This document shows, one piece after another, positions 13,483-64,000 of a stretch of 64,000 bases of DNA. The stretch lies in the NCBI RefSeq assembly GCF_024700885.2, contig NZ_CP117016.1, one strand, 5' to 3'. Within the stretch, counting starts at the first letter, position 1. Every line of letters begins with the position of its first letter. The notes beneath the pieces are model-generated. The model was given only the letters and a program-made list of their open reading frames with translations, was not told the origin of the DNA and did no database searches. The translations under genes were made by a program, and so were the position numbers. Source of the stretch: Escherichia coli. Its GTDB lineage: Bacteria; Pseudomonadota; Gammaproteobacteria; Enterobacterales; Enterobacteriaceae.

Positions 13483-13530
13483 AAAAAAAAAGAAAGGTAA
13501 CTTCCCCCGCGAGAGGGAAGTTACCTTTCT
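13483..13530 (-). terminator. intrinsic terminator in the 5' leader of ygcW (candidate attenuator)
   Basis: Perfect 16-17 bp stem (13491-13507 / 13514-13530, loop CGCGAG) followed on the minus strand by a run of 8-9 U, ending 24 nt upstream of the ygcW ATG. Confidence 0.6.
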
Positions 13531-13704: not shown

Positions 13705-13752
13705 GAGAAAAGTAATCCACCTGAAAGGGCGGCTTACTTTTCTCTTTTTTTT
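13705..13752 (+). terminator. intrinsic terminator in the 5' leader of yqcE (candidate attenuator)
   Basis: Perfect 11-bp stem GAGAAAAGTAA / TTACTTTTCTC (18-nt loop) followed by T8 (13745-13752), ending 24 nt upstream of the yqcE ATG. Confidence 0.55.
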
Positions 13753-31874: not shown

Positions 31875-33215
31875 TCAATGACGGCCGAAAACGGGACGTT
31901 TACGGTCAAAGGTCCAGCCGGGGATCAGGTACTGCATCGGGCCCGCGTCGTTACGCGCACCGCCAGGCAGACGTTTATAGGCCTCATGCGCCTTTTGTAC
32001 CTGCTCCCAGTCCAGTTCCACGCCCAGACCGGGCGCATCAGGAACTGCAATTTTTCCGTTTTTAATCTCCAGCGGATTTTGGGTCAGGCGACAATCTCCC
32101 TCCTGCCAAATCCAGTGGGTATCGATAGCGGTAGGATTACCCGGTGCCGCCGCACCCACATGGGTAAACATCGCCAGAGAGATATCAAAGTGGTTGTTGG
32201 AATGACAGCCCCAGGTCAGCCCCCAGTCGTCGCAAAGCTGCGCCACGCGGACTGCACCGGAAAGCGTCCAGAAGTGCGGATCGGCAAGTGGAATATCTAC
32301 TGCATTGAGCATTACCGCATGACCCATTTCACGCCAGTTGGTGGCGATCATGTTAGTCGCGACGGGCAAGCCGGTCGCCCGCCGAAACTCCGCCATCACT
32401 TCACGACCGGAGAAACCCTGTTCTGCGCCGCATGGATCTTCGGCATAGGTAAGAACATCATTCAGCCCTTTGCACAAAGAAATGGCTTCATCAAGCAGCC
32501 ATGCACCGTTGGGATCAACGGTAATCCGCGCATCCGGGAAGCGTTTCTTCAATGCACGAACAGTGTCGATTTCTTGCTCGCCAGGTAACACTCCGCCCTT
32601 AAGTTTGAAATCTTTAAAGCCATAACGATCCTGTGAAGCTTCCGCCAGACGCACAACGGCTTCGCTGTTCATCGCTTTCTGATGGCGCAACTGATACCAC
32701 TCATGGTTGCCCGGCGTATTTTCCAGATAAGGAAGATCGGTTTTGGTCCGATCACCGATATAAAACAGATAACCGAGGACGGTAATAGCCTCGCGTTGCT
32801 TGCCTGGCCCCAACAGTTCGCAGACCGGAACATTCAGCGCCTTACCTAGCAGGTCAAGCAAGGCGGCTTCCAGCGCCGCCACGGCATTAACGCGCAATTC
32901 AAAAGTCCAGGCACCTTTGCCGAAGGTATCAAAATCGGCTGCCTGATTACCTTTATGCACCTGCTGAACCACTTTATTCAGGCGCGCAACTTCCTGGCCC
33001 AACACCATCGGAATAGCATCGACAAGCGTCTGATAAATCACCTCTCCGCCTGGCGCTTCACCAATGCCGGTATGCCCGGCGTTATCGGTGAGTACCACAA
33101 TATTGCGAGTGAAATATGCGTTATGCGCCCCACCAATATTAAGCAACATGCTATCGTGCCCGGCGACCGGAATGACTTTCATATCAGTAATAACAGGACT
33201 GGATTGTGTCGTCAT
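31875..33215 (-). CDS. gudX: glucarate dehydratase-related protein
   Basis: 446-aa [34 protein letters not shown]...; paralogue of gudD. Confidence 0.93.
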
Positions 33216-33216
33216 C

Positions 33217-34569
33217 TTATTGCCCCGCGACAGGTTTCAGCTCGATACGCTTGATATCGCCCACCAGCACCAGGTAGCTCAGTACCGCGATTAAGGCATG
33301 AACACCAACATAAATCAGCGCCCCATTAAACGAGCCAGTCGTGCCAACGATATAACCAATTGCGATTGGCGTGACGATGCCAGAAATGTTACCGAACATG
33401 TTGAACAGGCCACCGGAAAGACCGCTGATCTCTTTTGGCGCGGTATCTGCCATTACTGCCCAACCCAGCGCCCCGATGCCCTTACCGAAGAAGGCCAGCG
33501 CCATAAAGCCGATGATCATCCACTCAACGTTGACGTAGTTGCAGAACACCATCACCATCGACAGCAACATGCCCATTACGATCGGTGTTTTACGCGCAAT
33601 GTTCAGCGATCCCGTGCGGCGCATCAGCCAGTCGGAAATAATCCCACCCAGCACACCGCCGATAAAACCGCAAACCGCCGGAACGGAAGCCACAAAGCCC
33701 GCTTTCAGAATCGACATCCCGCGTGCCTGCACCAGATAAACCGGGAACCAGGTAATAAAGAAGTAAGTCAGGGCGTTGATACAGTACTGACCGATATAAA
33801 CGCCGATCATCATCCGTGACCCTAGCAGCTGTTTGATCTGCCCCCACTTCACGCTGAACGGTACTTTAACTTTGGTGTTTTGCTGATCCATATTGATCAG
33901 CGCGCCACCCGCGGCGATGTACTCCAGCTCTTTCTGATTTACACCCGGATGTTGATTTGGCTCGTGGATGACTTTCAGCCAGAAAAAGCTGATGACAATG
34001 CCCAGACCGCCCATAAAGAAGAAGACGTGTGACCAGCCCACTTCATGAGTCAGCCAGCCCATAATCGGCGCGAAGATCACCGTTGCGAAGTATTGAGCGG
34101 AGTTAAAAATAGACACCGCCGTTCCCCTTTCCTGCGCCGGAAACCAGGCCGCAACAATGCGACTGTTGCCGGGGAAAGATGGCGCTTCAGCAAGCCCGAC
34201 CAGGAAGCGCAGAGTAAACAGGGCAACGATAATGCCGAATCCACTAAAAATATCGACGAAGCCTTGCAGCAAGGTAAACATCGACCAGATAAAGATCGAC
34301 CAGAAGTAGACGCGTTTTGAACCAAAACGATCCAGCAACCAACCACCAGGGATCTGTCCGATAACATAAGCCCATGAGAAAGCAGAGAACACATAGCCCA
34401 TTCCCACGGGATCAAGGCCGATATCTTTGGCCATTTCCGAACCGGCAATAGAAAGCGTAGCGCGGTCGCCGTAGTTGAAGGATGTGACGATAAACAACAT
34501 CACCACTATCCAGTAACGAGCATTTGTGCGTTTTTCCACACTGCTCGCAGCCTGACTTAAAGAACTCAT
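33217..34569 (-). CDS. gudP: glucarate/galactarate MFS transporter
   Basis: 450-aa [42 protein letters not shown]... Confidence 0.93.
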
Positions 34570-35003
34570 TGTTGCACTCCTGAAAATTCGCGTTAGCCAC
34601 GCTCACTCTGGACTGCGACATCGCCAGGAAATCAGAGGTGACGTAGGGTGTTTTTTGCCGTTTTTATAGGTCGTTCGCCGAATACGGCGCGTGTTTATAT
34701 CTGGCAATAGCAGTATAAAAAGCGCGCCATAGCGGCTCACCGTGCAACAACACAACATTAATGCGTTCAATGAGGCCCGATTTTGGCATTAGCCCTGGAC
34801 GGTGGAATCCACTTCACGGAAATGAAAACAAGAACAAGAAAGGAAGGGTTAAAACGAAGAAATAAAGAAGAGTATGAAATGGATCGCTTGACTCCAGGCA
34901 AACGCCAGTAAAAATCCGCGCTATGAAGCAGTTTTTACTGGCATTTGCCTGAAAAGATTCGATTCAGCACCGCTAAAACGGCATTTACCGCTCGCTGAAC
35001 GTA

Positions 35004-35453
35004 TCAGGACAACAGCGTGCCCCAATGTTCGACCCACGGATTTGATTCCGTTTCCGGTTCCGGGTTCTCACTGGCGTCAATCAACAGCATTTCTCCCACC
35101 CGCTGAGCGCTCTGTTCCTGCAACAAGGCATCGAACTGTTTGCCGCCATTGCAGAAATTCACATAACTACTGTCGCCGAGCGCAATCACGCCATAACGCA
35201 GATTCGGCTGGAAGCCCAGGGTATCTTTAATTCCCTGAAAGAGCGGCACAATGCTATCAGGAAGGTCGCCCTGCCCGGTCGTGGACGTAACCACCAGAAC
35301 ATACTTATTCTGATAGGGCAGCCAGTCGCTTAATTCAGGATCTTCAAATACCGTTGCTTTGTGGCCCTGCGCGGTCAGAATTGCTTCCGCTTCTTCCGCC
35401 ACTAACAGCGAATTTCCGTACATAGTGCCCACAAAAATACCAATTTCCGCCAT
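35004..35453 (-). CDS. yqcA: flavodoxin-like protein
   Basis: 149-aa [39 protein letters not shown]... Confidence 0.9.
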
Positions 35454-35470
35454 ACCGTTTTCTCCCTGGA

Positions 35471-36253
35471 TTAGGAACTTATCTCTCCATCCTGACCCGA
35501 TGGCGCACTGAACTCAACCCTTTCATTTTCAGGAAGCAGACCCCGCCAGCCAAATTGTGATAACGCCTGCATCCAGGTGCCGTCCAGGCCCGCGTGAATA
35601 GTCAACGGCTCGCCAGTAAAAGGATGCGTCAATGACAACTGACTGGCATGCAGCATTAACCGCTGAAGGCCAAAATGTTCAGCACCGCTGCGATTCTGGC
35701 GTAAATCACCATGTTTGCTGTCGCCAATAATCGGATGGCGCAAATGGGCAAGATGGCGACGGAGCTGGTGCTTGCGTCCGGTTTTCGGCTCCAGTTCCAC
35801 CAGGCCGTAGCGCGTGGTCGGGTAACGTCCGGTCGCTACCGGCATTTCTACGGTCGCCAGACCGCGATAATGCGTCACTGCTGGCTGTGGGCCTTTATCT
35901 TCGCGAGCAAATTTATCAGCGATTTTGTCCAGTTCTTCCACCAGTGGATAATCCAGAACTGCTTCTTCCATCAACCAGCCGCGCACAATCGCATGGTAAC
36001 GTTTCTGGATTTGGTGCTGTTCAAACTGTTGTGCCAGCAGCCGTCCGGCCTCGCTGGATAATCCCATCAACAACACACCAGAAGTTGGTCGGTCCAGACG
36101 ATGAGCAGTAAACACATGCTGGCCTATCTGGTCACGCACGGTTTGCATGACCACTACTTTCTCGTCGCGATCCAGCCAGCTGCGGTGAACCAGCCAGCCG
36201 GAGGGTTTATTTACCGCAACCAGCCATTCATCCTGATAGAGTATTTCCAGCAT
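35471..36253 (-). CDS. truC: tRNA pseudouridine(65) synthase
   Basis: 260-aa [28 protein letters not shown]...; RluA-family HRLDRPTSG motif. Confidence 0.92.
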
Positions 36254-36582
36254 TAGCTCGCATCATCCGCAAAAAGAGCATCCAGTTTTTCCAGCTCAGC
36301 CAGAATAAGCGCGCGTTGCGGGTGGTCCGTCGCCAGCGCCATTTCATAATAGGGAGCAACGGCAAAAGCACCCGGTAACGGCTGGTTGTTTTCTAACAAA
36401 TCGTGCATTCGCGGGATCAGCACCCACTGCAACCACTCCAGTGGTTCCATGGTGTCCATAAAGAACGGTTGGGTACTATTAAATTGATGCGGCTGGGGTT
36501 CATCGTTTCGCCAGTGCTGATGTTCACGCAGTAACGCTTCAAGCGCCTGCAACTGGAAACGAACGCGGTCATGAGTGGTCAT
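36253..36582 (-). CDS. yqcC: DUF446-family protein
   Basis: 109-aa ORF, MTTHDRVRFQLQALEALLREHQHW...; stop overlaps truC start. Confidence 0.85.
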   Translation of the reverse strand: MTTHDRVRFQLQALEALLREHQHWRNDEPQPHQFNSTQPFFMDTMEPLEWLQWVLIPRMHDLLENNQPLPGAFAVAPYYEMALATDHPQRALILAELEKLDALFADDAS

Positions 36583-36624
36583 AAAGCAACCTCAATAAGA
36601 AAAACTGCCGCGAAGGATAGCAGG

Positions 36625-36993
36625 AATAAAAAAAGGGAGCACTGTATTCACAGTGCTCCCGGTTCGTTTCGCAGCATTCCAGCTACTTTTGTTGCTCCCT
36701 GCTCATCCTTGACAACTTTTCCTCTGGCCTTGCGGCCAATCGTTCATCCTGAACTATTGCTTCCTGCTCACACCACCCCGATGTGATACTTCATCCTGAA
36801 GTGTCCCTGGCCTTCCTGACCCACCGAATCATCCTGACCGGTTCTCATTCTCCATCCTGGAGGTGTCCTTTAACGCGTCCTGCGTCATCCTCTTCGCTTC
36901 ATCCAGAAGCCTTTCCCTGAAACACCATCCTGGTGTGTCCTTCAGAAGTGTCATCATCCTGATGTTCACTTCGTTGTCTGACTCCCTGTCGAC
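36625..36993 (-). ncRNA. csrB: CsrB small RNA (CsrA-sequestering)
   Basis: Minus-strand transcript of about 369 nt from GUCGACAGGGAGUCAGACAACGAAGUGAACAUC (5' end at 36993) to hairpin GGGAGCACUGUGAAUACAGUGCUCCC plus U-run (36627-36660). At least 8 exact CATCCT (AGGAUG in the RNA) plus many more CAGGA/AGGA motifs on the plus strand. Confidence 0.95.
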
Positions 36994-37166
36994 GAAGATA
37001 GAATCGTCTTTTTCGCGAAGTCTTACAAGGCGCTTACAGACAATGCCTTAAGGAAAATTTCATATGAAAGTTAAGAATTGACAAGCAATATATTGATTTT
37101 AAATGAAAATAACGATTCTTATCTTTTTAAGTATTCGCTTATTTCCTGGCGATCTCCTACAGAGTC

Positions 37167-37184
37167 TGTAAGAGATCTCTCACA
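37167..37184. promoter_or_regulatory. UvrY-box inverted repeat upstream of csrB
   Basis: TGTAAGAGATCTCTCACA, perfect 18-bp palindrome about 175-190 bp upstream of the csrB 5' end. Confidence 0.75.
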
Positions 37185-37203
37185 ACCAGATGGGGTATTT
37201 GGA

Positions 37204-37749
37204 TTACAGAAGAGGCTTAAGTTGATTAAGGAATTCCGCAAGATTTGAGGCTAAATGCGTCCGTTTACGTGTTCCCAGCGTCTCTTTGCACACTTCACCG
37301 GAGAGATTACACACCGAGATCACCTCTAACTCTTCTTCCAGCGTCGCGATAAATAGCGTGGGCGGCAATTTTAGCCTTTTCTGAGTCACCAGATGACCAA
37401 TCAGATTTTCCTGCACCCGACGGAAGTCGTCTTCACTCCAGGTTTGCAGCAATGTCAGTTTGATATCGCCAAACTGCGCGTGCATATCCCCGGCAAACTG
37501 AGTCGTATAAAAGGTATGAATTGTGGGTTGTATCACAAGATCAAAAGCGCGTTCAACCGCGTTTACATTTTGTTCCCCGGTAAACGGCTGGGGTTGCCAG
37601 TATACGGCATCTTCGGTGGTTGAAATAATGCACGGTGAAGGAACGCCGTACAGTTCCTCACTCAACGGCCAGCTTTTATGCTCTTCATGCCACGCATCGC
37701 AGTAGCGTGCAGTAAAATCTTTCAGGGCTTGTGCGGTCAAATCGTCCAC
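37204..37749 (-). CDS. syd: SecY-interacting protein Syd
   Basis: 181-aa [38 protein letters not shown]... Confidence 0.92.
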
Positions 37750-62939: not shown

Positions 62940-64000
62940 TTATTCCCGTGAACTAAACAACGCCGCCAGACCACTGCGCCGCTCAGTACGCGTGGCGATT
63001 GCCGCACTCAAAATACGCTCATCGGCATACAGAGACAAACGTCGACGCGCGCGGGTTACCGCAGTGTAAACCAGCTCTCGTGTTACTACCGGCGTGCGTT
63101 GGCTCGGTAAAATCAACGCCGCATGGTCGAACTCCGATCCCTGCGATTTATGTACCGTCATCGCCCACGTAGTTTCGTGCTCTGGCAAGCGACTCGGTTG
63201 CACAGACTTAATATTGCCGTCCGGCATCGCAAACCAGACGCGCGTCCCCTGCCCACGATCCAGAGCGATACCGATATCGCCATTAAACAACCCAAGCGCG
63301 CTGTCATTACGGGCAATCATCACCGGTCGGCCTTCGTACCAACGAGAGTGCGGATTACGATGAATTTTGCGCTTCTGTTGCATAAACTGCTCAATTCGCT
63401 CATTCAGTCCAGCCACGCCAAACGGCCCTTCCCGCAGGGCGCACAAAAGCTGGTACTCATTGAACGCCTGAATGATTAAATCCGGCTCGGCACGCGCTTG
63501 CAGCAGATCCAGATAACGTCCGTAACCCGCAAGAGCTTCCTCAAGCATCGCAATATAATCTTCGCCGCTCTGTAAAAGCCGTTTTTCGATATCAGAAAAA
63601 TCCTGCTGAAAAACGGTTTTCACTGCCGTTTTATCACCACGGTTGATCGCCGCAGCTAACTGACCAATGCCAGAATCGCTGCCGAAACGATAGCTTTTTT
63701 GCAGCAGGCAGAGACTGTCGCGCAAAGATGCCGCTTCTGTGCCAGTTCCTGACGGAACGTGAGTTCCCGTCAGGCGGCTCAACTGCCCGGCACGCTCGGC
63801 GGTAAAGCCGGCATTGGCATAAGCGCAGATATCGCCCAGCACAGCCCCAGCCTCAACCGAGGCCAGTTGATCACGATCGCCGAGAAAGATCACTCGCGCA
63901 TGATCGGGCAAGGCGTCGATCAGTCTCGACATCATAGGCAGATCGATCATTGACGCTTCATCTACCACCAGCACATCAAGATGCAGCGGGTTACCGGCAT
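62940..64000 (-). CDS. recD: RecBCD exonuclease V alpha subunit RecD, C-terminal part (N-terminus beyond window end)
   Basis: Minus-strand frame open to the window edge; C-terminal helicase motifs (...[48 protein letters not shown]...); stop at 62940. Confidence 0.9.

Follow-up and report, generated by a model that had tools for sequence, protein, structure and literature searches.

The palindrome between yqcA and gudP of Escherichia coli is most likely a terminator-like RNA hairpin with a stem lengthened in Escherichia

In the 64,000-nucleotide stretch of Escherichia coli DNA analysed here (the window), the genes yqcA (flavodoxin; 35004-35453, stop codon 35006-35004) and gudP (33217-34569) are both read from the - strand and are separated by a 434-bp spacer (34570-35003) that carries no RefSeq annotation. 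The neighbouring genes gudD, gudX, gudP, yqcA, truC, yqcC and csrB, all on the - strand, were named from the RefSeq annotation of identical E. coli DNA and from K-12. Among 5,426 complete E. coli genomes, 5,422 have the spacer at 99-100% identity. It contains the longest local inverted repeat of the whole window, with arms GGCAAACGCCAGTAAAAA (34897-34914) and TTTTTACTGGCATTTGCC (34932-34949; both given on the + strand) on either side of a 17-nt spacer. A preliminary description of this DNA had reported 18-bp near-perfect arms with N17 and a single mismatch, placed within the 434-bp gudP upstream region and downstream of yqcA; re-reading the arms confirmed this (17/18 complementary) and the RefSeq gene names agree with the placement. 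Pairing reaches beyond the arms first described, as the extended stem (34892-34954, - strand) comprises 27 bp (23 outer and 4 inner pairs) with one bulge and a folding energy of about -40 kcal/mol, and weaker complementarity continues out to 34880-34966. In transcript sense the order is yqcA stop codon, hairpin, gudP: the stem starts 49 nt past the yqcA stop and its 3' foot lies 322 nt before the gudP ATG.

The palindrome is real and non-random. A search of the 64 kb for the arm (up to three mismatches) returned two copies only, against 0.10 expected by chance, and none of 100 shuffled sequences gave two matches. The arms hardly vary across 5,425 E. coli genomes, in which the element is single-copy (median 1, maximum 2 places per genome). 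Several identities were considered and rejected. A dispersed repeat (REP, ERIC or MITE) or the end of a mobile element was dismissed, the element being single-copy in E. coli and having no second copy in the window. A known RNA family was likewise discarded, with Rfam 15 giving CsrB alone over 33000-37500 and six orthologous loci; this small RNA, known and annotated in K-12, was recovered at full length at 36625-36984 (- strand, 383 bits). A small open reading frame over the 5' arm in E. coli (GTG...TAA, 11 codons) has its frame broken by an indel in Citrobacter. A potential + strand promoter over the arm (TTGACT-16-AAAAAT) is a single match of the kind that shuffled sequences also give (0.6 expected), and its start would fall in the loop. 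Other sizeable inverted repeats of the window lie at 13491-13530, 13705-13744 and 63572-63623, one of them with 16-nt perfect arms (AGAAAGGTAACTTCCC / GGGAAGTTACCTTTCT) and an 8-nt spacer and the other two with arms of 16-17 nt.

As transcribed from the - strand, the element consists of a 5' arm GGCAAAUGCCAGUAAAAA (34932-34949) whose last five bases form an A-run, a centre CUGCUUCAUAGCGCGGA (34915-34931) that varies in sequence even within Escherichia, and a 3' arm UUUUUACUGGCGUUUGCC (34897-34914). Folding of the 53-nt hairpin was strand-dependent: the - strand RNA reached -32.6 kcal/mol (z = -8.5, with none of 200 shuffles as stable) and the + strand RNA -26.0 kcal/mol (z = -5.9). At the single position where the arms fail to match, the - strand RNA has a U.G wobble and the + strand RNA a C.A mismatch. 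A similar bias was seen among relatives, with 18 sense-strand G.U cells versus 2 A.C cells in the six Escherichia rows of the alignment, and 67 versus 40 in all 29 rows. Two population variants read within E. coli consist of a loop change (34920) and the change of a C-G pair to U.G (34941). The G.U asymmetry together with these wobble-compatible variants points to an RNA stem on the yqcA/gudP sense strand, as a symmetric DNA site predicts neither.

The centre of the - strand RNA reads GUAAAAA-CUGC-UUCAUAGC-GCGG-A-UUUUU-AC, i.e. an A-run, a short stem-loop and a U-run. The A5 and T5 runs are the loop-proximal ends of the arms. The inner stem pairs CUGC (34931-34928) with GCGG (34919-34916) across an 8-nt loop; it is followed, after a bulged A (34915), by the U5 run (34910-34914), which directly adjoins the inner stem on its 3' side and pairs with the A-run once transcribed. 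Complementarity then runs for 13-18 nt beyond the A- and U-runs. The preliminary description had noted that no clean U-run follows the palindrome on either strand. This holds only if the whole 18-nt arm is taken as the stem, which is how the run came to be overlooked, and fails for the inner stem, which is followed by T5 at 34914-34910. Its remark that the palindrome did not look like a simple terminator must also be revised, since an A-run/stem/U-run core is embedded in the arms and orthologues show that core to be terminator-like. An A-run/U-run pair can thus conceal a terminator within a longer palindrome.

As a terminator, the E. coli core is weaker than typical. The tail score of its U5 run is 3.9 (3.1-4.7 in the orthologues described below), and the stem available before the U-run (CUGC/GCGG, 4 bp, 8-nt loop) is worth about -3.9 kcal/mol (-3 to -9 in orthologues). 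The E. coli hairpin was not called in a scan with consensus terminator features, and this silence, with the weak inner stem, suggests that termination may be inefficient or partial. Most of the stability of the fold comes from sequence transcribed after the U-run. RNA folded to position 34905, a few bases past the U-run, gives a hairpin of about 14 bp, three to four pairs of which come from the extra bases, and only the read-through RNA forms the 27-bp stem of about -40 kcal/mol. Apart from this hairpin, nothing substantial between the two genes in E. coli looks like a terminator. It has the sense orientation of yqcA, downstream of its stop codon, and the G.U bias favours this same strand. Adams et al. 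2021 (PMC7815308) tabulate only strong Term-seq ends, and for K-12 2,914,915-2,924,161 they list no 3' end other than that of csrB. The gene yqcA may be poorly expressed, and given this selectivity the blank speaks neither for nor against termination.

A scan with YqcA recovered 80 loci from Enterobacteriaceae, 71 of them with gudP downstream. Of the gudP-linked loci, 21 carry a hairpin at the same position with a different inner stem and conserved flanks. The carriers are Escherichia, Salmonella, the Citrobacter koseri/amalonaticus/sedlakii group, Raoultella, Superficieibacter and a few others. Inner stems of the orthologues include CCUUUC/GAAAGG, CCCUU/AAGGG, ACCGCU/AGUGGU and CCGC/GCGG, each preceded by an A-run and followed by T4-T7, and the consensus scan called the Citrobacter hairpin (L006) terminator-like on both strands and that of Superficieibacter (L063) on the sense strand. 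In the 21 intact sequences, 75.7% of the cells were paired versus 32-51% with the partner slid by one to three columns, five of the six inner-stem pairs had changed on both sides, and the pair 17-49 occurred as A-U in seven sequences, C-G in seven and U-A in three. Pair-count and pair-type measures did not rise above shuffles, which ignore kinship among these related sequences. We regard the covariation as moderate support for pairing, as judged from the alignment. A covariance model built on the orthologues matched 21 loci on the sense strand at E<0.01 (20 training sequences and one new locus, L046), with three more weak matches, and found no other credible site; over all loci, the remainder of the window and the gar locus, further matches were weak (E 0.016-0.1) and lay within barA (one) and, in the two Atlantibacter loci L052 and L057, upstream of yqcA. 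The other suggestion of the preliminary description, an RNA structural element, is supported by the strand-asymmetric fold, the pairing kept while inner stem and loop change, and the covariation of 17-49.

Elsewhere the spot is differently occupied. The Kosakonia/Phytobacter group retains the A-run and has lost the sense-strand T-run. In loci lacking the hairpin, the place after yqcA is taken by GC-rich hairpins with a T-run or by REP-like repeats. REP-like GCCGGGTAAGGCG...CCCGGC sequences fill the spacer in Enterobacter and the C. freundii group. In genomes other than those of Escherichia, the yqcA stop is followed at once by a G+C-rich hairpin of the CCCTCCCCCTACCGGGAGGG type (L006 3451-3470, L019, L063 3458-3479 and others), so that most other genera have two hairpins in tandem, the conserved one being the second element there. 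Where an insertion parts yqcA from gudP, the lineage is one without the hairpin anyway.

Between the hairpin and gudP lie several conserved blocks. The predicted proximal gudP promoter, AATGTTGTGTTGTTGCACGGTGAGC-N17-TATACT (34712-34763, - strand; -10 at 34717-34712), is separate from the palindrome, and its block is conserved in all genera, hairpin-less ones included. At the counterpart of E. coli 34717-34712, the scan also returned a promoter-like GTGAGA-17-TATACT in L006 and L063, so that roughly 215 bp lie between the hairpin and the likely gudP promoter further downstream. The proximal blocks at 34712-34830 (TTTTCATTTCCGTGAAG, GGGCTAATGCC, AATGTTGTGTTGTTGCACGGTGAG and TTTATACT) are present in all genera. 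Just downstream of the hairpin, at 34871-34891 (GTCAAGCGATCCATTTCATAC on the - strand), stands a block GTCAAGCGA...TTTCA(C/T)AC which is the best conserved part of the distal spacer, with TCAAG.GA invariant in 29 loci. The GTCAAGCGA block also occurs in hairpin-less genera, always 310-336 nt from the gudP ATG, and by eye resembles a CRP-like site (AGCGA-N6-TCA(C/T)A). A small G+C hairpin, CGCCGAATACGGCG (34676-34689), is found in the putative gudP leader. On the + strand the scan flagged it as terminator-like, and conservation is high in the part of the leader that follows it. An origin of the distal region by duplication of the gudP promoter and leader was rejected, as direct and inverted local alignments stayed within the shuffle range.

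The preliminary description had proposed that the palindrome might serve as a protein-binding operator for the sugar-diacid regulator of the gud genes. A DNA operator for a dimeric gud regulator, CdaR or another factor, would account for a palindrome in the gudP upstream region, palindromes being typical operators, and in Citrobacter and Salmonella GCCAGTAA-like words occur at four places in the spacer, the surroundings of the predicted gudP start among them. In Rogers et al. 2015 (PMC4551912), the fragment used as a CdaR biosensor spans the whole spacer; it is compatible with an operator role and does not discriminate. The distribution of the palindrome, however, runs against this proposal. 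Conservation of the arms across gudP orthologue leaders, which the description had put forward as a check, was patchy, the covariance model matching only 21 of the 71 loci (24 with the weak matches). About 47-50 of the 71 gudP-yqcA loci thus lack the palindrome (in Enterobacter, the C. freundii group, Leclercia, Lelliottia, Buttiauxella, Trabulsiella, Pluralibacter, Atlantibacter and others, gudP adjoining yqcA in all of them), yet these genera all keep the proximal promoter blocks TTTTCATTTCCGTGA, TGCACGGTGAG and TTTATACT. In the garP-garD control region (374-bp spacer), the best arm match was 12/18 and the covariance model found nothing (L081). The arm bases also shift jointly (CCAG/CTGG, CCTG/CAGG, CCCG/CGGG) while other GCCAGT words in the spacer are fixed, and such joint changes are a signature of pairing rather than of base-specific recognition. 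Usual operators are far smaller than these arms of 18-23 bp and their 17-bp spacer, the centre of the palindrome sits some 215 bp upstream of the predicted gudP -10, and the wobble-compatible asymmetry favours RNA. The literature searched describes no CdaR motif, footprint, site or gudP start. The element therefore resembles the operators of the CdaR regulon (gudPXD, garPLRK, garD) in being a palindrome upstream of gudP, but differs from them in not being conserved with gudP, in its absence from the gar region, in its covarying arms and in its atypical size and promoter distance. Judged from sequence comparison, a CdaR operator is not supported, because the palindrome is missing from about two-thirds of the gudP loci and from garP-garD, and we consider an operator for CdaR or another gud regulator at this place highly improbable.

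Elements controlling gudP are better sought in the proximal blocks at 34712-34830 and in the GTCAAGCGA block than in the palindrome. One further candidate is ATTTCTTCGTTTTAACCCTTCCTTTCTTGTT (34833-34863), which aligns with ATTTCTGCGTTTAAACTCCTGACATTCTTATT (L081 5174-5205, upstream of garD in K-12) with a score of 32 (shuffle mean 21.2, maximum 30); the two are possibly shared control DNA of the CdaR regulon. Upstream of garP, a TTGCAC-N24-TATACT arrangement with the same spacing as at gudP was noticed by eye. As an element common to gudP and garP it was rejected, the alignment not exceeding shuffles.

The palindrome is most likely a terminator-like RNA hairpin at the 3' end of yqcA whose stem has been lengthened in Escherichia. 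More specifically, it is probably an intrinsic terminator of the bidirectional type that marks the 3' end of truC-yqcA and shields gudPXD from upstream read-through. In the sense-strand RNA of yqcA and gudP, the A-run, short stem-loop and U5 run would together constitute such a Rho-independent terminator, with 34910-34914 as the expected release point, and we infer that RNA polymerase stops at this U-run in E. coli. The truC-yqcA transcript would then end at the hairpin, about 95 nt past the yqcA stop, and the hairpin would insulate the glucarate-inducible gudPXD operon, the promoter of which is predicted about 200 bp further downstream. The long stem may act mainly as a 3' protective hairpin, with termination perhaps only partial. 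For annotation, the element offers a probable 3' boundary of the truC-yqcA unit.

The layout matches that of known bidirectional intrinsic terminators in the A5 run, stem-loop and U5 run of E. coli, placed in sense orientation shortly past a stop codon, and in orthologues with variable stems and T4-T7, that of Citrobacter being called on both strands. Unlike the usual terminators, the E. coli stem at the U-run has only 4 bp and complementarity continues for 13-18 nt to give the 27-bp stem. With REP/BIME elements the hairpin shares a stable palindromic structure between co-directional genes, and REP-like sequences occupy the same spacer in Enterobacter; it differs from them in being single-copy in E. 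coli. The yqcA 3' hairpin is best explained as an ordinary, hitherto unannotated instance of a well-known kind of element.

The added stem length is a derived trait of Escherichia. Five other Escherichia lineages were sampled: in four of these, as in the window, the full stem reaches -33 to -40 kcal/mol, the exception being L001 (about -27 kcal/mol), in which it has partly decayed. In other genera it ranges from -11 to -28 kcal/mol, and the outermost pairs (columns 5-61, 7-59 and 9-57 of alignment A2) are found in Escherichia only. When two Escherichia versions were compared, the loop differed at most positions and the arms were kept. The extension may have arisen as a by-product when a quasi-palindrome underwent template switching, or it may have been selected for an action on read-through RNA. 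The former possibility leads to the suggestion that the E. coli hairpin is a relic without present function, i.e. an old terminator with arms perfected by a template-switch mutation. The weak inner stem, the loss or decay of the hairpin in many genera in which gudP stays and the origin of the extra outer pairs in clustered changes that lie mostly on the 3' side are in line with a relic. However, the arms hardly vary, whether among 5,425 E. coli genomes or between divergent lineages of Escherichia in which the loop differs at most positions, and the variants found sit in the loop or are wobble-compatible, so that we think a functionless relic unlikely.

The long stem could alternatively serve in RNA processing or stability, forming only when transcription reads through, in which case RNase III would cut yqcA from gudP and trigger decay. 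RNA ending just past the U-run is predicted to have a hairpin of about 14 bp, versus the 27 bp and one bulge of the read-through RNA, which attain the substrate length of RNase III (at least 20 bp, about two helical turns) in Escherichia only. The derived extension has been kept across the five sampled Escherichia lineages, if partly decayed in L001, while the loop has been free to vary, and the intergenic parts of E. coli transcripts are enriched in RNase III sites (PMC6212723). The extension is nevertheless absent outside Escherichia and could have arisen by template switching rather than by selection, which makes cleavage by RNase III an unlikely role for the stem, albeit one compatible with termination, the two not being exclusive. 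A combination of both is conceivable but improbable, in the form of a two-state element in which RNA stopped at the U-run would keep a short protective hairpin, and the 27-bp duplex of read-through RNA would be cut by RNase III or would otherwise silence or uncouple gudP. The conserved CUGAAUCG element could share this logic of two-state insulation.

In the retroregulation of phage lambda by sib/tI, an RNase III site is completed only in the read-through RNA. The yqcA hairpin likewise has a terminator core nested in a longer potential duplex, the 3' half of which exists only in RNA passing the U-run, a likeness of layout only. Should the long Escherichia stem indeed act only on read-through RNA, it would provide a chromosomal example of retroregulation, and a two-state element, if real, would be a chromosomal analogue of lambda sib that keeps the inducible glucarate operon tight.

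The hairpin might instead terminate a small RNA, derived from the yqcA 3' UTR or from a promoter of its own, in which CUGAAUCG... would pair with the gudP ribosome-binding region, or it might be a 3' ligand of the ProQ type. Just upstream of the hairpin, CTGAATCG(A/T)GTTAGC is kept in about 20 loci (e.g. L006 3522-3542 and L019 3530-3552; the E. coli counterpart lies at 34955-34968), and its Citrobacter and Salmonella copies show complementarity to GCTAAC(G/A)CGAAAATTCAGGAG at the start of gudP, with a duplex z of about -3 (p<=0.01). ProQ-bound mRNA 3' ends such as cspE-3' and malM-3' typically have an A-rich motif 5' of the terminator hairpin that pairs with the U-tail (PMC7367173), and the yqcA hairpin resembles them, in sequence, by its A-rich 5' side facing the U-tail. 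In E. coli, however, complementarity to the gudP start was no better than in shuffles (z = -0.3), the inverted match over the whole spacer stayed within the null range, no promoter was found upstream of the hairpin, no Rfam family matched and the literature searched never mentions yqcA together with gudP or with a terminator. We therefore hold a small RNA or ProQ ligand at this place to be very unlikely. The CTGAATCG element could, on the strength of this complementarity, be an anti-RBS or a small RNA seed in Citrobacter and Salmonella, for which it is a lead, and is no explanation for the window. In the same two genera, CUGAAUCGUGUUAGC is a candidate pairing stretch for the gudP (gudT) leader.

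Rearrangements have also touched the locus. In E. coli 2014C-4135 (L086), the sequence leaves the reference right after GGAGTCAAG, at the counterpart of window position 34887, which indicates that an insertion or a rearrangement has its breakpoint shortly past the hairpin. The gudPXD genes have been deleted in several lineages (E. albertii L015, and L049, L053, L066, L010 and L018), in which yqcA then adjoins barA, and in E. albertii and others with this deletion the hairpin was deleted too. In two of them the deletion joins the 5' half of the hairpin region to gud coding DNA, namely the 3' end of gudD in L010 and an unassigned gudX/gudD-type stretch in L018.
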